From: Escherichia coli
GTDB lineage: Bacteria; Pseudomonadota; Gammaproteobacteria; Enterobacterales; Enterobacteriaceae
Assembly (NCBI RefSeq): GCF_045037415.1
Contig: NZ_CP173438.1
Reading direction: 5' to 3' (one strand)
DNA: 64,000 nucleotides
The notes under the pieces are model-generated. The model was not told where the DNA came from, made no database searches, and worked only from the letters and a program-made list of their open reading frames with translations. Below, piece after piece: positions 51,806 to 61,928 of the stretch. Each line of letters starts with the position of its first letter. Within the stretch, counting starts at the first letter, position 1. Position numbers and translations under genes: made by a program.

Positions 51806-53701
<1,896 letters not shown>

Positions 53702-53764: not shown

Positions 53765-55906
53765 TCAAAATTCCATTTTCACCGTGAATTGCACTTCACG
53801 CGGATCGCCAATCTGATTCCCCAGATTATTTGTGGCGATGGAAGAGGTGTAATACGTTTTATCAAACAGGTTTTTGACGTTTAATTGCAGTGTGACCGGA
53901 TACTGCAATTTCATTTTGTATGCGGCGAAGGCATCGGCAACAAAATAGCCTGGCAGATAATAGTCAGCCCCATTGGTTGCCGAACGACGGCTTACACCAT
54001 GTCCACCACCGCCAAATGTCAGCGTATTATTGCCTGGCATGTTATGAATATCATAGGTCAGGAATAGCGAACCGGTATGACGAGGAACATTCGGCAATGG
54101 TTTCCCTGCATAATCAGGATCCTCCAGAACCTTAGCATCGGTATAGCCGTAGCTGGCAATGATATTAATGTTTTCAGTTAATGCTCCCGCAAGGTCGACT
54201 TCTACCCCTCTTGAACGAACACGGCCTGCCGTTTTGGCGATGGTTTCATCACCAATACTTTCGGTATACAACACATTACGTTTATGGATATCAAACAGCG
54301 CAATATCTGCGGTGATACCATCGAATAGCTCGAATTTTGCCCCGACTTCGTAAGCATTAGATGATTCCGGTGGAAGATCGCCAATGTAGCTGGCAATTGA
54401 CGACTGCGGCATAAATGTTTGCGAATAATTGGCAAATAAGGATACCGATGGCGTCAGTTTGTAGACCAACCCCAGTTTGGGAGTCCATTGTTCATCGCGG
54501 CTGTCAGTATTGACATTAAAAGGACGGCCTTTACCCGCATACTGCGTGTAATACTGATAGCGGATCCCGGCGACGGCAATCCAGTTATCGGTCAGATAGA
54601 GTGCGTCCTGTGCATACGCTGAGTAGCTCTCCTGTTTGATCGTCTGATCACTGTCCGACGCCGAAACCGTTGTACATTTGCTGGTATTACCATAAACAGG
54701 GTTGTAAATATTGAAATCTTTAGCTTTTTTACAGCGAATCATATCTGTACGCAGAAGATCATAATATTCATATGACACCCCACCCAGAATCTCATTATAG
54801 AATCCGGCAATATCAACATTCCCTTGCAGATCCGCACGAGTAGCATGCATACGCTGGGTAGAGCCCTGAGTTGCATCAACACGCCGTGTCAGTGTTCCTG
54901 TCGTTGCATCATATGCGGTAACACGCGCCTGATTATCGCTGTATTTATCCTGGCTGTAGCTGTAATCAAAGCGTGCTGTCCACTGGCTATTGAGATGATA
55001 TTCTGCGTTGAGTTGCGCCAGATCGGACTGACCATCTGTAATATTAAACGGTTCGTCAAAACGTATTTTTCGATCAACGTTTACGGGCTGTTTCGTCGTA
55101 AGGTCGAAAATCGTTCCACGATCGAACGGAGTTTTATAGTCCCGATGGGAATAGAGCATGGTTACTGTTGCATTATCACCAAACCATGTGAGTGACGGGG
55201 CAATAAATGTACTGCGCTCTTTACCGAAGTTTCGCCAGTAATCTTCATCCTGCACTTCCCCGGTAAGGCGATACGCCAGCTGAGTGCCTTCAATGGGACC
55301 TGTGATATCAAGTTGCCCAGTGCCGCCACCAAAACTGGAGGAGGTGGCTGAAACCGAACCATGGAATGTTTTTTCCGGGCGCTTGGTCACGACGTTAATC
55401 AGTCCGCCAGGATCGAGAATGCCATACAGCGTGGAGGCCGGGCCTTTTAGCACTTCCACACGTTCTGTGGCGGCGTTGAAACTGCGAGGAAGTACGGTTC
55501 GCAGACCGTTGGTCATGATGGAGCCATCCCGGTTTGCGCCAAACCCACGGCGTACAAAGGCGTCCTGAGTTCCGCCTAATGTATTGGTCTGTACCACGTT
55601 ACTGACGTTATAAAGCGCCTCATCCAGCGTTGTCGCATTCTGGTTTTCCAGAACCTGATCGCTAACCGTATTGACCACCTGCGGGATATCCAGCATCGGC
55701 ATATCGGTTAATGTCGCCGTAGAGGTGCTCAGAGGTTGATAACCATCGGTTGCCTCAGTTGCGGTATTTGCATCTGCTGTAACAGTGATTGTTTCGCCAT
55801 CTTTGGTCGTTACAGAGTCTGTTGCATGAATCATCGGTGCCGCAAAAAGCAGTGAAAAGAGCGCCCGACCTTTGAGTCCTGAGAATGAAGGTGTGAACAT
55901 AGCCAT
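53765..55906 (-). CDS. fitA: TonB-dependent outer membrane siderophore receptor (fit-like)
   Basis: 713 aa ORF with signal peptide, TonB-box-like ETITVTA, plug and 22-strand barrel character, terminal aromatic residue; symbol is a tentative family assignment. Confidence 0.8.
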   Translation of the reverse strand: MAMFTPSFSGLKGRALFSLLFAAPMIHATDSVTTKDGETITVTADANTATEATDGYQPLSTSTATLTDMPMLDIPQVVNTVSDQVLENQNATTLDEALYNVSNVVQTNTLGGTQDAFVRRGFGANRDGSIMTNGLRTVLPRSFNAATERVEVLKGPASTLYGILDPGGLINVVTKRPEKTFHGSVSATSSSFGGGTGQLDITGPIEGTQLAYRLTGEVQDEDYWRNFGKERSTFIAPSLTWFGDNATVTMLYSHRDYKTPFDRGTIFDLTTKQPVNVDRKIRFDEPFNITDGQSDLAQLNAEYHLNSQWTARFDYSYSQDKYSDNQARVTAYDATTGTLTRRVDATQGSTQRMHATRADLQGNVDIAGFYNEILGGVSYEYYDLLRTDMIRCKKAKDFNIYNPVYGNTSKCTTVSASDSDQTIKQESYSAYAQDALYLTDNWIAVAGIRYQYYTQYAGKGRPFNVNTDSRDEQWTPKLGLVYKLTPSVSLFANYSQTFMPQSSIASYIGDLPPESSNAYEVGAKFELFDGITADIALFDIHKRNVLYTESIGDETIAKTAGRVRSRGVEVDLAGALTENINIIASYGYTDAKVLEDPDYAGKPLPNVPRHTGSLFLTYDIHNMPGNNTLTFGGGGHGVSRRSATNGADYYLPGYFVADAFAAYKMKLQYPVTLQLNVKNLFDKTYYTSSIATNNLGNQIGDPREVQFTVKMEF

Positions 55907-56279
55907 TTAGTCTGTTATCCCAAAAACTCGCGGATTGTCGCGAGTGAAAATTGTTTCTTATTGCTCACTAAGCACTATCCGTTTGTTATTTCGCCATCGG
56001 ATATGTAATTGAGAATCATTCAATCACGCAGTAATGTAGTAGTAAATGAGAAATAACAAAAAATTGCTACATGTGTTTTTATGAAAGGTTTATACAATTT
56101 GATTGCTTTTAATTTATTGATATTTAATGTTTTTATTTTTATGTATAAAAATATTTTACCTGTTATTTACCTTGTTTTTGTGTGGCTTTTAACTGCTTGA
56201 CTACTACATTTTGTGGCGTCAAACTCTCAAAGGAGAATGAGTTTTATTTTTGTTTGTCTTTGATTAAGTTGGCGTACAC
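55907..56279. promoter_or_regulatory. AT-rich divergent promoter region of the iron-uptake locus with candidate Fur box
   Basis: Between divergent receptor and ABC transporter genes; AATTGAGAATCATTCAAT resembles the Fur consensus GATAATGATAATCATTATC. Confidence 0.4.
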
Positions 56280-57089
56280 GTGGCACATAACGCAAAAGGG
56301 CAGGGGCTGATCCTCGACAATGTTTCTGCCGGGTATCACAAGAAAATCATTGTTGATGGTGTTTCTTTCTCCGTTCCCACAGAAAAAATGACCGTTCTGG
56401 TTGGGGCAAACGGCTGTGGAAAGTCGACGTTGCTCAGCACCATTGCACGTATCTTGCAACCTATGGGCGGTTCGATATTGCTTGATGGCAAAGCGATTCA
56501 CGAGCAACCAACGAAAGCGTTATCCCGTAGACTTGGGATCTTGCCGCAGTCGCCATTATTGCCGGAGGGCTTAACCGTTTATGAACTGGTGTCGCGTGGG
56601 CGTTTTCCCTGGCAAAATTTCATACGTCAATGGAGCGACGCCGATGAGCAGGCGGTGGAAGAGGCCCTGAAATTAACCGGTACGCAGGAGTTTGCACATT
56701 TACCTGTTGAAAAACTCTCTGGTGGGCAGCGCCAGCGTTGCTGGATTGCGATGGTGTTGGCGCAAAAGACGCCTTATATCCTGCTGGATGAACCCACAAC
56801 CTGGCTTGATTTACGTTATCAGGTTGAAATTCTTGAGTTATTACATGATTTAACGCGTCATCACGGGCGTACAGTCGTCGTGGTGTTGCATGATCTGAAT
56901 TTTGCCGTCAATTATGGCGATACGTTGATATTTTTACGCCAGGGGAAAGTGGTGCGTGTGTTGAATGAGGGGGAGCATTGCACGCCTGAACTGGTAAAAG
57001 CTGTCTTTGACGTTGATGTTCACGCATCAATAAATCCTCTGACGGGAAAGCCGTTCTTCATGCCGTTTCGTGGTGTAGAAAAAGTATGA
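56280..57089 (+). CDS. ABC transporter ATP-binding protein (iron-siderophore type)
   Basis: 269 aa ORF, GTG start, Walker A GANGCGKST, ABC signature LSGGQRQR, Walker B ILLDEP. Confidence 0.85.
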   Translation: MAHNAKGQGLILDNVSAGYHKKIIVDGVSFSVPTEKMTVLVGANGCGKSTLLSTIARILQPMGGSILLDGKAIHEQPTKALSRRLGILPQSPLLPEGLTVYELVSRGRFPWQNFIRQWSDADEQAVEEALKLTGTQEFAHLPVEKLSGGQRQRCWIAMVLAQKTPYILLDEPTTWLDLRYQVEILELLHDLTRHHGRTVVVVLHDLNFAVNYGDTLIFLRQGKVVRVLNEGEHCTPELVKAVFDVDVHASINPLTGKPFFMPFRGVEKV

Positions 57090-58069
57090 TGCGCACAGGG
57101 CTGGTTACTGTAATTTTCCTCGCCTTACTGCTGGTGGGATGCGTGGTATATCCAGGGATTGGTGCCCGATTTATTGCACCACAAACGGTGTTGCAGGCAT
57201 TTCTTCATTTTGATCCGCAAAACTTCGATCACAACGTAATTGTAAGACTCCGTTTGCCGCGTTTAGCGGCAGCATTGCTTACCGGTGCTTCTCTTGGTGT
57301 TGCTGGTGCTTTGTTGCAGGCTGTCATTCGTAACCCATTGGGGGAACCACATATTTTAGGCTTAAATGCCGGAGCCGCTCTTGCTGTCGTTGCCGCCAGT
57401 GCGCTTGGACTGGCCTTTCCGGTTGGACGCCCACTGCTGGCATCTACGGGGGGCGCGTTATTGTTCCTGTTGATATTGCTGCTTTCCTCCGCAGGGCGTT
57501 CAGGGTTAACGCCAATGAAAGTTACTTTATGCGGCGTGGCGCTATCGGCGTTCGTGTCCTCAATAACGGCTGCAATCCTGATTCTTGACGAACAAACACT
57601 GCTGGCGATGCGGACATGGCTAGCAGGTGATTTAGCGGGGCAGGATTGGGCGACGCTGGGTACGTCCGCCTGGTTTTCTCTGGGGGGATTTGTGTTAGCC
57701 CTTTACCTTGCACCCTCCCTTAACATGTTGGCACTGGGCGATCGCATGGCGCAGGGGCTGGGCGTCTCTGTACTCCGCACGCGAACATTCACCCTGCTTG
57801 CGATCGCGTTGCTCTGTGGCGCAGCCGTATCGATTGCTGGCCCCATTGGTTTTGTCGGCCTGCTAGTACCGCAGATTGTCCGGCGTCTGGTATCAGCGGA
57901 TCTGCGCGTTCTGCTCCCTCTTTCAGCTTGTGTCGGCGCGCTTTTGTTATTACTGGCAGATATTATTGCCCGGACGCTTTTCACGCCCCATGAGTTAGCG
58001 ACCGGTGTCATGACGGCGTTAGTTGGTGCGCCTGTTTTTGTCATTATGGCGACGAGGATGTTCAAATGA
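57086..58069 (+). CDS. ABC transporter permease (FecCD family)
   Basis: 327 aa polytopic ORF; 4-nt overlap with the ATPase gene. Confidence 0.85.
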   Translation: MMRTGLVTVIFLALLLVGCVVYPGIGARFIAPQTVLQAFLHFDPQNFDHNVIVRLRLPRLAAALLTGASLGVAGALLQAVIRNPLGEPHILGLNAGAALAVVAASALGLAFPVGRPLLASTGGALLFLLILLLSSAGRSGLTPMKVTLCGVALSAFVSSITAAILILDEQTLLAMRTWLAGDLAGQDWATLGTSAWFSLGGFVLALYLAPSLNMLALGDRMAQGLGVSVLRTRTFTLLAIALLCGAAVSIAGPIGFVGLLVPQIVRRLVSADLRVLLPLSACVGALLLLLADIIARTLFTPHELATGVMTALVGAPVFVIMATRMFK

Positions 58070-59115
58070 GTCGGATAATGAACGTCGGGCTACGCCCACT
58101 ACGTGTTGGTAAGTTTTCGACACTGGTGCGCCCTAAAAATCTGCTGTTGCTTGGTGGGCTGTTCCTGCTTGCGGTTGGAATACTGATATTCGGTCTGATG
58201 CAGGGTTCTTTCTCTGTTCCGGCATCGGAAGTAGGACGAGCGTTGTTTGCTCCAGAAAACGTAAGCACAGACGCACGTTATATTGTGCAGGATATTCGCT
58301 TGCCGAGAGTCATCATGGCATTGCTATGCGGGGCCATGTTAGGTATGGCAGGGGCCGCAATGCAATCCATTGCACGTAACGGCCTTGCCGATCCTGGTTT
58401 AATCGGCGTCAAAGAAGGATGTAGCGTGGCTGTGCTGTGGCTGATTTTCCAGTTTCCAATGCTGGGAATGTTCTGGCGTCCAGTGGCTGGTCTTGCTGGT
58501 GGCCTGTTGGTGGCTTTAATCGTGATTTTTTGTGCGCGCGATATTTCCCGCCCGCGATTTGTTCTGATTGGTATTGGTGTTTCCTGGTTTTTCGCCGCCG
58601 GTATCGGTGTATTTATGACCACTGCAGATGTTCGAGATGTACAAACTGCATTGATGTGGTTATCGGGAAGCCTGCATGCAGCTAACTGGATGTTAGTCGG
58701 TATTTCAGCCTGTTGGATGTTGCCAGCCGCTCTTTTATTGCTGTTCACCGCCAGGACTGCGGATATCGCTCTGCTTGGTCATCAGGTTGCAACCGGGTTA
58801 GGGGTGAATAGTTCTCGTCTGGCGTTGTTACGTGTCGCCGCACCCATAATCCTGACAGCCGTCTGCGTTTCGTGTGTTGGTAACATCGGTTTTGTCGGAT
58901 TGATAGCACCCCATATATCACGTTTTATTCTACGTGGCGGGCAGACGACATTACTGCTGGGGAGCGCGGTATCGGGGGCGTTGTTAGTTATTCTGGCGGA
59001 TAGCATTGGTCGTTTGGCTTTTTTGCCTTTGCAACTGCCTGCCGGAATCATTATCTCACTGATTGGTGGACCATTTTTTTTACTACTGCTCTGGCAGCGC
59101 AGGAACAGTTTTTAA
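58066..59115 (+). CDS. ABC transporter permease (FecCD family)
   Basis: 349 aa polytopic ORF; 4-nt overlap with the preceding permease gene. Confidence 0.85.
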   Translation: MSRIMNVGLRPLRVGKFSTLVRPKNLLLLGGLFLLAVGILIFGLMQGSFSVPASEVGRALFAPENVSTDARYIVQDIRLPRVIMALLCGAMLGMAGAAMQSIARNGLADPGLIGVKEGCSVAVLWLIFQFPMLGMFWRPVAGLAGGLLVALIVIFCARDISRPRFVLIGIGVSWFFAAGIGVFMTTADVRDVQTALMWLSGSLHAANWMLVGISACWMLPAALLLLFTARTADIALLGHQVATGLGVNSSRLALLRVAAPIILTAVCVSCVGNIGFVGLIAPHISRFILRGGQTTLLLGSAVSGALLVILADSIGRLAFLPLQLPAGIIISLIGGPFFLLLLWQRRNSF

Positions 59116-59125
59116 CGGGAGTTAT

Positions 59126-60073
59126 ATGCGTTTATTTTTTTCTCTGCTGATACTGTTGTCATTTTTTTCCCGTGCAACAGAACCTGTTCAGGTATTTACT
59201 GATGATTTAGGGCGCAAAGTCACTGTTCCTGCTCATCCAAAGAGAATTGTCTCTTTACACGATCTTGATATCACTATTCCTCTGATTGAGCTCGGTGTAC
59301 CTCCTGTCGCCAGCCACGGGCGAACTCGGCCTGACGGTAGCCATTTCATTCGATCTGGCGCGTTATTGACAGGTGTCGACTTTGATAATTCATCGATCGC
59401 CTTTATTGGTACCGCTGATATTGATATTGAAGCGATTGTGGCGGCAAAGCCTGACTTGATCATCACAGAACCGACCCGTAATACGCCCATTGAACAACTT
59501 GAAAAAATTGCGCCCACGGTGAGCATTGATCATCTCAAAGGGGGCGCGCCAGAAATCTATCGCAAGCTGGCAGAACTTACAGGAACGCAGTCGCAGCTGG
59601 CGATACTTGAACGCCGCTATCAGGCACAAATCAATGCGCTGAAGGCGACGCTGGACAGCCAAAAAATAACGGTATCGGTGATTCAGGCAAACCAGGGAAA
59701 AATTAATGTGATGCATAGCTATCATTCGCTGGGACGGGTATTACGCGATGCTGGTTTTCGTTTTCCGCCGCTGATTGAGAGCATTCCTGAAGGTGGGCGA
59801 ATGGATGTGAGCGCGGAGCGTTTACCTGAACTGGATGCCGATTTTGTTTTTGCAACCTGGCGCGGTGACACCGGTGGTAAACCTCAGGATGAGCTGGCAG
59901 CAATGGAAAAAGTCATGCCGGGATGGTGTCAGTTTCTGACTGCCTGTCGTTCCGGGCGTTATGTGCTGATTTCTCGTGAAGAGGCAATTTCTAACTCCTT
60001 TGCATCTCTGGGGCTGATGGCTGCGCAGATACAATCACAAATTGCAGGGCGACCTCTACCGGAGGCTAAATGA
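59126..60073 (+). CDS. Periplasmic siderophore-binding protein (class III substrate-binding protein)
   Basis: Track ORF starts at 59063; signal peptide MRLFFSLLILLSFFSRA begins at codon 22, preceded by an SD. Confidence 0.8.
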   Translation: MRLFFSLLILLSFFSRATEPVQVFTDDLGRKVTVPAHPKRIVSLHDLDITIPLIELGVPPVASHGRTRPDGSHFIRSGALLTGVDFDNSSIAFIGTADIDIEAIVAAKPDLIITEPTRNTPIEQLEKIAPTVSIDHLKGGAPEIYRKLAELTGTQSQLAILERRYQAQINALKATLDSQKITVSVIQANQGKINVMHSYHSLGRVLRDAGFRFPPLIESIPEGGRMDVSAERLPELDADFVFATWRGDTGGKPQDELAAMEKVMPGWCQFLTACRSGRYVLISREEAISNSFASLGLMAAQIQSQIAGRPLPEAK

Positions 60074-60957
60074 TCCAGAAAGATAAAGTGCGGGTTGATA
60101 TTTTTGGTGAGCGTTTTCGCACTCGCGCGAGTCAGTTAACGCCTGGGTTAAGAGTTGTCGCCAGCTACATTAATGAGCATCGTGAAGTGGTACTCGAGCA
60201 AACGGCGATGGAAATTGCGGCCACGTTGAACACTTCCGATGCCACAGTTATCAGGGCTATACAGGCCCTGGGGTTTGCCGGGCTGCGTGATCTGAAACGC
60301 ACTCTGGAACAGTGGCTTGGTCCAGCCCTTAGTTCCAGCGAAAAGATGTCTACGACGGTGAGTAACTTGACGAGCGATGTTAACACCGCAATCGACTTTG
60401 TTCTTGAAGGGCATTTGTATACCTGTAATGTCCTGTCAGAGCCTGAAAACCGCCACGCGCTTGCGCAAGCTGTAGCGTTGTTGGTGCAGGCACGGCAAGT
60501 CGCAATTTTTGGCATTGGCGCTTCGGGTATTCTGGCGGACTATACCGCACGACTATTCAACCGCATAGGTTTGCCTGCCACGGCACTAAACCGTACGGGT
60601 ATTGGCCTTGCCGAGCAACTGATCGCGCTTCAACGTGGCGATGTTCTGATCATGATGGCGCAAAAATCTGCGCACCGGGAAGGGCTGACAACGCTTCGTG
60701 AGGCGAGGCGGCTGGGGATCCCTGTTATTTTGCTGACAAACGCGCTGGATTCACGTTTTAGCAAAGACGCCAGTATCGTGATTCATGTTCCGCGCGGGGA
60801 TGAAAAAGGGAAAACGCCGCTACATGGTACGGTATTGTTGTGTCTGGAAATGATTGTCTGGTCGGTAGCTTCCGCAGTGCCGCAGCGTGCGGTTAAAACC
60901 ATTAAGCGAATTAACGATTTCCATCGAGGACTGAAAACGGGAAGAAAGAATGGCTAA
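60070..60957 (+). CDS. fitR: RpiR-family transcriptional regulator (N-terminal HTH plus SIS sugar-phosphate-binding domain)
   Basis: 295 aa ORF; HTH_6-like N-terminus and SIS-type GIGASG fold; start overlaps the binding-protein gene stop; symbol is a tentative family assignment. Confidence 0.8.
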   Translation: MIQKDKVRVDIFGERFRTRASQLTPGLRVVASYINEHREVVLEQTAMEIAATLNTSDATVIRAIQALGFAGLRDLKRTLEQWLGPALSSSEKMSTTVSNLTSDVNTAIDFVLEGHLYTCNVLSEPENRHALAQAVALLVQARQVAIFGIGASGILADYTARLFNRIGLPATALNRTGIGLAEQLIALQRGDVLIMMAQKSAHREGLTTLREARRLGIPVILLTNALDSRFSKDASIVIHVPRGDEKGKTPLHGTVLLCLEMIVWSVASAVPQRAVKTIKRINDFHRGLKTGRKNG

Positions 60958-60967
60958 TCTGGGCTGA

Positions 60968-60995
60968 GACCGGTAGCAGCACCGGCCTCTTTTTA
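60968..60995. terminator. Terminator between the regulator gene and ygiN
   Basis: GACCGGT-AGCAGC-ACCGGCC hairpin followed by TCTTTTT. Confidence 0.55.
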
Positions 60996-61001
60996 GAAAT
61001 G

Positions 61002-61316
61002 TCAAAGCCCCGGCTGCAGGATACGAATATTCATCTCCAGCACGTCACCTTTTACGGCTTCGCTATATGCTTTCATGTGCGGGGTTTGCAGATGCGCTTC
61101 AAGATGCGCGATGCTTTCCCACTGCTCAATCATCACGATAGAATCCGGTGCCATAGACTGGAAACTCACGCCAGCAGCGCAATCCACCATTGGCGCATAG
61201 CCGTGGCAACCTTCTTCTTTCAGTACGGTTGGAACGATTTTAGCAAACTGATCCAACACTGCCTGACGGTGATGTTGACCAGGACGAGTACGAATTTCTG
61301 CGATTACTGTAATCAT
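61002..61316 (-). CDS. ygiN: Quinol monooxygenase (ActVA-Orf6/ABM family)
   Basis: 104 aa ORF MITVIAEIRTRPGQHHRQAVLDQFAKIVPTVLKEEGCHGYAPMVD... Confidence 0.9.
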   Translation of the reverse strand: MITVIAEIRTRPGQHHRQAVLDQFAKIVPTVLKEEGCHGYAPMVDCAAGVSFQSMAPDSIVMIEQWESIAHLEAHLQTPHMKAYSEAVKGDVLEMNIRILQPGL

Positions 61317-61346: not shown

Positions 61347-61928
61347 TTAACCAAAAATTTCCACAAGATGCTTGCGATATTCTTCAGTATAGCGGGGAAC
61401 ATCAGGCATTTTTATCACGTCATTAGCGATAAATGTCGGCAGCGGTTCCATGCCAAGGAATTGGTTTGCTTTATGGAACGGCAGGTACACACCGTCAACA
61501 CCAACGCCGTGGAAGAACTGATCTTTTTCGGTGAAGGCTTCCATTGGTGCGTTCCAGGTCAGAGAAAGCATATATTTTTTGCCCTGTACCAGGCCGCCGG
61601 AACCGTATTTTTTTGATGGATCTTTGCGGGTACGACCATCGCTGGCATACAGAGTCCCGTGACCTTCGGTGAATACATCATCAATATATTTTTTCACTGT
61701 CCACGGCGCGCCCATCCACCAGCCAGGCATCTGCCAGATCACCACATCAGCCCAGAGAAAGTTTTGTACTTCCGCTTTGACATCGTAGTCGCTGTCGGCG
61801 CGAACAATGCGGACATCATGCCCGAGGTCGCGCAGTGTGCCATCCGCGACTTCGGTCAGGGTGTCGTTCAGTTGACCATTGGAGTGGGCGAATTTTTTCG
61901 CGCCGTTGATAATCAGGATGTTGCTCAT
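61347..61928 (-). CDS. mdaB: NADPH:quinone oxidoreductase (flavodoxin-like)
   Basis: 193 aa form starting MSNILIINGAKKFAHSNGQLN (codon 53 of the track ORF). Confidence 0.9.
   Translation of the reverse strand: MSNILIINGAKKFAHSNGQLNDTLTEVADGTLRDLGHDVRIVRADSDYDVKAEVQNFLWADVVIWQMPGWWMGAPWTVKKYIDDVFTEGHGTLYASDGRTRKDPSKKYGSGGLVQGKKYMLSLTWNAPMEAFTEKDQFFHGVGVDGVYLPFHKANQFLGMEPLPTFIANDVIKMPDVPRYTEEYRKHLVEIFG

Follow-up and report, generated by a model that had tools for sequence, protein, structure and literature searches.

The open reading frame (ORF) at 60070-60957 on the plus strand of a 64,000-nucleotide stretch of Escherichia coli DNA (RefSeq assembly GCF_045037415.1, contig NZ_CP173438.1; the whole stretch is called the window here) is fitR, which closes the fitBCDE-R operon in the iron-uptake locus fit of E. 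coli. We consider it very likely, taken as a whole, that this identity goes together with layered repression of the locus by FitR and Fur at predicted operators and with relief of FitR repression by an effector.

We established the identity by mapping the 18 primers in Table 2 of PMC2593036 onto the window. All 18 fell on the expected genes, and their order and orientation were also as expected; 17 matched exactly, and the remaining one had a single mismatch. Exact matches for the fitR2 cloning primers lie at 60070-60092, starting at the ATG, and at 60940-60954, ending with the last sense codon, and the fitR quantitative polymerase chain reaction (qPCR) primers lie at 60173-60260. The gene names used here follow from this mapping: fitA for the receptor, fitB for the ATPase, fitC and fitD for the permeases, fitE for the binding protein, and fitR for the regulator. 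The fit system of Ouyang & Isaacson (Infect Immun 2006; Open Microbiol J 2008, PMC2593036) is the same locus, with the same gene order (a receptor divergent from an ATPase, two permeases, a binding protein, and a regulator), protein types, divergent promoter, and RpiR-type last gene. The published strain, i484, is of serogroup O25, and the locus in the window is 100% identical to that of O25b:H4-ST131 chromosomes. The published work left the operator, the exact Fur sites, the effector, and the substrate undefined; at the level of the finding itself, there is no difference. An RpiR-type regulator on an E. coli iron-uptake operon is thus already known, having been described in 2006 and characterized in 2008, and the novelty implied by a preliminary description of the window is not borne out.

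The 295-residue product carries both hallmarks of the MurR/RpiR family. Pfam places an N-terminal RpiR-type helix-turn-helix (HTH) domain, HTH_6 (PF01418), at residues 15-81 (E = 1.9e-9) and a C-terminal SIS domain (PF01380) at residues 138-247 (E = 1.3e-13). Over its full length FitR matches the solved RpiR regulators RccR (8K3B, E = 3e-15) and NanR (4IVN, E = 1.6e-14); its HTH also matches the YbbH HTH structure 2O3F (E = 2e-7), and matches to the SIS domain by itself include 3SHO, 8K3B, 4IVN, and 7EN6. The RefSeq annotation has the same boundaries and calls the product "MurR/RpiR family transcriptional regulator". The fitR ATG (60070-60072) overlaps the fitE TGA (60071-60073) as an ATGA, as seen in the sequence GCTAAATGATCC and in the junction context ...GAGGCTAAATGATCCAG.... 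We compared this junction across FitR orthologues of 53-99% identity from 75 species-representative genomes. Among the 46 loci with the full gene arrangement, the ATGA overlap recurs in 21 and a gap of 2-15 nt is found in 17 more, so that overlap or a gap of at most 15 nt characterizes 38/46. The ORF, the domains, and the full-length matches confirm the RpiR-type HTH and SIS protein of the preliminary description, and the ATGA overlap and the order fitBCDE-R confirm its position as the last gene, coupled to the iron-uptake operon. As a side observation, annealing of the pBAD-fitR1 forward primer used in the published work begins at codon 20 (60127), so that FitR residues 1-19 are missing from that repressing construct; when orthologues are compared, conservation of the protein is lowest in this stretch.

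The effects of this regulator have been measured. Ouyang & Isaacson had already noted in 2008 the N-terminal HTH and C-terminal sugar-isomerase domain of FitR, and they showed it to be a DNA-binding autorepressor acting 2- to 5-fold on both divergent fit promoters (PMC2593036). Overexpression of FitR lowers fitB-lacZ 3.2-fold, whereas knockout de-represses the fusion and complementation restores repression, with like results for fitA and by quantitative reverse transcription PCR (PMC2593036). Purified His-tagged FitR shifts the intergenic promoter fragment by electrophoretic mobility shift assay (EMSA), and cold probe competes (PMC2593036); by primer mapping, the 359-bp probe corresponds to 55928-56286 here. 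Induction of fitA is 23-fold in a fur mutant, 2.2-fold in a fitR mutant, and 52-fold when both genes are mutated, and iron limitation still induces expression in the fitR mutant; FitR acts independently of iron and Fur, and Fur is the stronger repressor (PMC2593036). These data agree with the earlier expectation that the regulator, and not Fur by itself, affects expression of the locus. The reporter and DNA-binding checks proposed with that expectation are essentially already published, both showing an effect of FitR. Work on Klebsiella in 2018 found fitA induced by iron limitation and stated that enterobactin is not the fit substrate, which it called unknown (PMC5907654), and a 2022 study notes an absence of functional data for FitA (PMC9409007). 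In the library that we searched, we found no later study of FitR or of its effector or operator.

In the mechanism that we propose, FitR would recognize TGTAGT/ACTACA half-sites directly after the predicted -35 of each promoter, a position in which it would block RNA polymerase. A conserved box that lies on or immediately beyond each predicted -10 would be bound by Fur. Through the translational coupling of fitR to fitE, the amount of repressor would track expression of the operon, a negative feedback. An effector probably binds to the SIS domain and lifts repression, and the locus would then be fully on only at low iron plus the cognate signal. The effector is more likely to be something other than an ordinary phosphosugar, because a conserved loop of the domain does not have the serines that canonically bind phosphate; one candidate is the imported siderophore or something derived from it.

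The SIS domain of FitR

RccR holds the phosphate of 2-keto-3-deoxy-6-phosphogluconate (KDPG) through S139, S183, S185, and S188, and its authors describe four conserved Ser/Thr residues that bind phosphate across NanR, MurR, and RccR (PMC11014249). We aligned FitR with RccR and NanR by using HMMER and checked the RccR numbering against the residues named in that paper. The four RccR serines align to FitR S152, A197, K199, and H202, so FitR keeps 1 of the 4 Ser/Thr, as do 72 orthologues. In the loop itself, I-S-Q-S-G-R-S of RccR and V-S-S-S-G-S-T of NanR stand against M-A-Q-K-S-A-H of FitR; in general form, A/G-Q-K-S-A/P-H replaces S-x-S-G-x-S/T.

This replacement is itself conserved. The stretch GDVLIMM[A/G]QKS[A/P]H[R/K]E is nearly invariant in the 72 orthologues (53-99% identity), with Q198, H202, and E204 invariant and S200 nearly so. 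Also invariant are S152, within GIGAS, and R161 and R165, which align to sugar contacts of RccR. Because the loop and these three residues are conserved while the Ser/Thr are replaced, the pocket appears to be under selection yet is not a canonical phosphate cradle. Such a cradle is a trait of the characterized phosphosugar-sensing members and not of Pfam family membership; the SIS domain of the structural-genomics RpiR protein 3SHO also has a non-canonical loop without it. As far as the alignment goes, the loop weakens the case for a phosphosugar, while an anionic ligand would still be allowed, since Lys and His could hold an anion.

Effector relief has points against it. The published repression is modest and was measured in the absence of a candidate ligand, and FitR could act ligand-free. 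In that case, the SIS domain would serve oligomerization only, and FitR would be a constitutive autorepressor, translationally coupled to the operon, that damps and stabilizes expression once Fur repression lifts. The 2- to 5-fold repression seen with no added ligand (PMC2593036), the loss of the canonical effector cradle, and the tight coupling to fitE, which fits dosage feedback, would all be accounted for. The (near) invariance of Q198, S200, H202, E204, R161, R165, and S152 down to 53% identity argues otherwise, as it goes beyond what a loop with a structural role only would require and suggests conserved binding, and we judge a FitR with no small-molecule effector to be unlikely.

Predicted FitR and Fur sites between fitA and fitB

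We predicted operators and promoters by comparative footprinting of the divergent spacers beside FitR orthologues, with anchored alignments. In the window, the fitA-fitB spacer is 373 nt long and contains an inverted pair, AATGTAGTAGTAAA at 56033-56046 and TTGACTACTACATT at 56197-56210. The 9-mer TGTAGTAGT has only two sites in the window, both in this spacer. Read on the minus strand, 56035-56046 gives TTTACT, which is -35-like, followed by ACTACA, as a candidate for the fitA promoter; over 61 distinct spacers, conservation of this 12-mer is 90% or higher. On the fitB side, the footprint cTTGACTACTACA is conserved in the 39 distinct spacers of full-type loci analyzed. The arrangement TGTAGT-N25-ACTACA recurs with a start-to-start distance of 30-31 nt.

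The two hexamers stand out in counts over all spacers. TGTAGT/ACTACA is present in 63/63 divergent spacers beside FitR orthologues, at 174 sites compared to 16.5 +/- 4 in shuffled sequences. In an unbiased count of hexamers, only those of TGTAGTAGTA, plus GAATGA/TCATTC, occur in all 62 spacers, and occurrence in both orientations is most frequent for ACTACA/TGTAGT (61/62). The anchored alignment yields the footprint aTGtaATTGAgAATCATTCAA.CA.g.....aTGTAGTAGTAAA in a spacer that is otherwise unconserved. The operator half-sites of RccR are likewise TGTAGT/ACTACA (PMC11014249). We therefore predict from conservation that TGTAGT/ACTACA are the half-sites of FitR, a result that is new but modest.

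Fur-like elements accompany both predicted promoters. Predicted Fur box I has 12/19 matches to the consensus, and its block ATTGAgAATCATTCAA is at least 90% conserved in the 61 distinct spacers, which come from many genera; GAATGA/TCATTC, the Fur core, is found in 62/62 spacers. Predicted Fur box II has 13/19 matches, and AGAGAATGAGATTTATTT recurs in most full-type loci about 24 nt beyond cTTGACTACTACA, with only scattered columns reaching 70% consensus. The predicted layout is thus the same for both fit promoters: a -35-like element (TTTACT or TTGACT), ACTACA, a -10-like element (TGnTTGAAT or CAAACT), and a Fur-like box at or just past the -10. This shared layout would explain how FitR and Fur each repress both promoters independently. 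We also considered an eight-codon mini-ORF upstream of fitB, MSFIFVCL (56237-56263, behind AAGGAG), as a possible leader peptide and rejected it, as its Shine-Dalgarno sequence lies 1 nt from the ATG and its length is not conserved in other genera. It coincides with predicted Fur box II and is probably not translated.

Several points weigh against these assignments. The window holds 20 sites with at least 13/19 Fur consensus matches, so the spacer is not singled out by this measure; support for the two predicted boxes comes from the cross-genus footprint. A simple sigma-70 consensus scan found no consensus promoter in the spacer, and the proposed promoters, which are weak assignments with hexamers that depart from consensus, rest on conservation. 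The orthologous loci are related by descent, and site counts overstate the number of independent observations. Finally, the conserved elements overlap the predicted -35s, and promoter function or another factor could explain part of their conservation.

This last point extends to a reading in which TGTAGTAGTAAA and TTGACTACTACA are promoter elements or the site of another factor, and FitR binds elsewhere in the 359-bp EMSA fragment, a case that we consider unlikely. Both elements do overlap predicted -35 hexamers (TTTACT and TTGACT), but conservation reaches ACTACA, within a promoter spacer that is normally free to vary. The FitR site was expressly left undefined in the 2008 paper (PMC2593036). 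The hexamers equal the half-sites of RccR, a homologous regulator (PMC11014249). Loci in which fitR itself is directly divergent from a receptor repeat ACTACA 40-90 nt upstream of fitR and carry TGTAGT-N25-ACTACA pairs, and the elements co-occur with FitR orthologues in 63/63 cases. FitR half-sites remain our preferred assignment for these hexamers.

FitR orthologues and related regulators

The orthologues come from Escherichia, Enterobacter, Kosakonia, Citrobacter, Klebsiella, Raoultella, Kluyvera, Erwinia, Pantoea, Serratia, Rahnella, Tatumella, Rosenbergiella, and Xanthobacter, and from one record labeled as a Pseudomonas plasmid. They occur in two contexts. Type 1 is the full fitA/fitBCDE-R arrangement. 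In type 2, the FitR orthologue (64-73% identity to FitR) is directly divergent from a distant receptor with 35-39% identity to FitA. Type 2 comprises L039, L023, and about 25 further loci; most belong to Pantoea, Serratia, and Rahnella, with some in Erwinia, Enterobacter, and Tatumella. In L039 (Pantoea agglomerans), a ferrichrome/ferrioxamine-type binding protein is coupled to the receptor, with no adjacent ATP-binding cassette (ABC) permease or ATPase. Type 2 spacers carry the same TGTAGT-N25-ACTACA and Fur-like elements, and it seems that regulator and operator move as a module that is paired with different receptors. In a separate observation, two loci, L017 (5926-8992; Erwinia sp. JUb26) and L019 (Pantoea coffeiphila), have three extra genes between fitE and fitR with overlapping stop and start codons. 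One encodes a PepSY_TM membrane protein (Pfam E = 1.2e-54), and each of the other two encodes a PstS-like (PBP_like_2) periplasmic binding protein.

Across the 75 genomes, the conserved neighbors of FitR are receptors, siderophore-binding proteins, and ABC components, that is, siderophore uptake genes. No sugar kinase, isomerase, phosphotransferase system, or glycosidase gene is conserved beside the orthologues in these genomes. The sole sugar-related neighbor, a major facilitator superfamily oligosaccharide transporter in a Serratia plymuthica locus, did not recur in the other loci checked. FitR also reaches none of the NCBIfam equivalog cutoffs for known phosphosugar regulators, scoring 20-79 bits against cutoffs of 296-920. 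Its best score is 79.4 bits against 920 (the models include a glucokinase-fused regulator), followed by 72.3 against 378 for the MurR-type model, 65.7 against 400 for AlsR, and 51.6 against 296 for HexR.

The preliminary description had reasoned from the SIS fold that the locus responds to a sugar phosphate or sugar-like ligand, or that the Fit substrate is a glycosylated or otherwise sugar-containing siderophore. Although the characterized members MurR, NanR, RccR, and HexR are without exception sensors of phosphorylated sugars or sugar acids (PMC11014249), S152, R161, and R165 are invariant, and K199 and H202 could still hold a phosphate, a conventional phosphosugar sensor is quite improbable in view of the consistent replacement of three of the four phosphate Ser/Thr in 72 orthologues by A/G197, K199, and H202, the low equivalog scores, and conserved partners that are always siderophore uptake genes with no recurring sugar gene. 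The locus-specific RpiR regulator of that description thus stands, while the sugar signal, which drew on the family name only, is left without support and somewhat weakened. In its place we tentatively suggest that FitR, together with its orthologues, may be a distinct subfamily of RpiR proteins whose pocket has been rebuilt to sense a non-phosphosugar effector, namely the imported (ferri)siderophore or a breakdown product. Throughout Enterobacterales, and in at least one Xanthobacter, members of this group are always linked with TonB-dependent siderophore receptors.

The closest point of comparison is RccR/HexR of Pseudomonas (PDB 8K3B and 8JU9; PMC11014249), which share the two-domain build; RccR is the best solved full-length match of FitR. 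The DNA-contacting Arg is kept (R53 in RccR, R62 in FitR), and the half-sites of the RccR operator are identical to those predicted for FitR. Their spacing differs, being 3 or 14 nt for RccR and, by prediction, 25 nt and about 160 nt for FitR. RccR controls central carbon metabolism and binds KDPG, whereas FitR controls a siderophore transporter. The enterobacterial and vibrio regulators MurR, NanR, and AlsR/RpiR are, like FitR, HTH_6 and SIS repressors encoded with the operon that they control, and their repression is relieved by an effector (PMC11014249). Their targets are in sugar catabolism, whereas that of FitR is iron uptake, and FitR lacks the conserved phosphate cradle.

Other iron-uptake systems offer a functional parallel. 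PchR, YbtA, and AlcR are AraC-type, siderophore-responsive cytoplasmic activators of receptor genes, and FecIR-type surface signaling uses a sigma/anti-sigma pair that needs a receptor STN domain. Like FitR, these are locus-specific regulators layered on Fur and tuned apart from the global iron signal. PchR, YbtA, and AlcR are, however, activators of a different fold, whereas FitR is an RpiR-fold repressor, and FitA lacks the STN domain of FecIR-type receptors.

Extraintestinal pathogenic and adherent-invasive E. coli, as well as Klebsiella, commonly carry the fit locus, which is iron-induced and whose use as a strain marker has been suggested (PMC9409007, PMC5907654). Mutagenesis and ligand screening could start from the predicted operators and Fur boxes and from the non-canonical SIS loop. 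If the pocket does sense a siderophore, FitR would be the first SIS-domain siderophore sensor, adding substrate induction atop Fur control, and finding its ligand would also reveal the Fit substrate.

Genomic setting of the fit locus

The genes of the locus and the predicted regulatory elements are listed in Table 1. The hairpin and T-run 3' of fitR give a weak indication of the probable end of the fitBCDER operon.

Table 1. Genes and predicted elements of the fit locus in window coordinates.
Feature	Position	Strand	Basis or remark
fitA, TonB-dependent siderophore receptor, 713 aa	53765..55906	-	ORF; TIGR01783; Pfam; primers 55086-55162
Predicted Fur box I, GTAATTGAGAATCATTCAA	56005..56023	.	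overlaps predicted fitA -10 and extended -10 TG
Predicted fitA -10, TTGAAT	56023-56018	-	
Predicted FitR operator element 1, TGTAGTAGTAAA	56035..56046	+	inverted partner of 56197-56210
Degenerate partner half-site, GCTACA	56066..56071	+	25 nt from TGTAGT; ACTACA in most Pantoea/Serratia-type loci
Predicted fitB -35, TTGACT, then predicted FitR half-site, ACTACA	56197-56202, then 56203-56208	+	
Predicted Fur box II, GAGAATGAGTTTTATTTTT	56233..56251	.	3' of predicted fitB -10 CAAACT (56220-56225)
fitB, ABC transporter ATPase, GTG start, FecE/FepC-like	56280..57089	+	ORF, RefSeq; qPCR primers 56437-56523
fitC, FecCD-family permease	57086..58069	+	ORF, RefSeq; primers 57705-57800
fitD, FecCD-family permease	58078..59115 (RefSeq start; ORF open from 58066)	+	primers 58770-58829
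fitE, periplasmic iron-siderophore binding protein	59126..60073 (RefSeq start)	+	primers 59673-59744
fitR, HTH_6 and SIS autorepressor of the fit locus	60070..60957	+	ORF, Pfam, primers; function PMC2593036
Terminator-like hairpin, with T-run to 60995	60970-60985	+	consensus scan; hits in region not above chance

The locus is flanked by parE (51809-53701) on one side and by ygiN (61002-61316) and mdaB (61347-61928) on the other. Because ygiN and parE are 47 nt apart in E. coli K-12, where the fit locus is absent, the locus is a 7.3-kb insertion between them. The complete locus is present at 95% identity or more in 1870/5426 complete E. coli genomes, about a third. In NZ_CP069589.1 (2604527-2612348), the locus matches as two pieces over about 7.8 kb rather than 7.3 kb, which suggests an insertion or rearrangement of roughly 0.5 kb.

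FitA scores 374 bits with TIGR01783, above the cutoff of this generic siderophore-receptor model, and reaches no equivalog cutoff. Its Pfam domains are Plug and TonB_dep_Rec (the barrel) only, with no STN signaling domain found by Pfam, and neither the ORF list nor RefSeq has a sigma or anti-sigma ORF between parE and ygiN. FecIR-type control of fit is therefore not expected. We also looked to the homology of FitA for the class of the Fit substrate and abandoned the attempt: the FoxA, FetA, and FhuA structures score about equally (~155-170 bits), and FitA reaches no NCBIfam equivalog cutoff, so that the class is not assignable in this way.

Between mdaB and ygiZ lie a gene for an Hcp-family type VI secretion effector (62179-62658) and a hypothetical gene (~62661-63371). 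The GC content of 62179-63371 is about 34%, compared to about 50% in its surroundings. Because mdaB and ygiZ are adjacent in K-12, this segment represents a second, small insertion that may be an orphan Hcp-effector pair.

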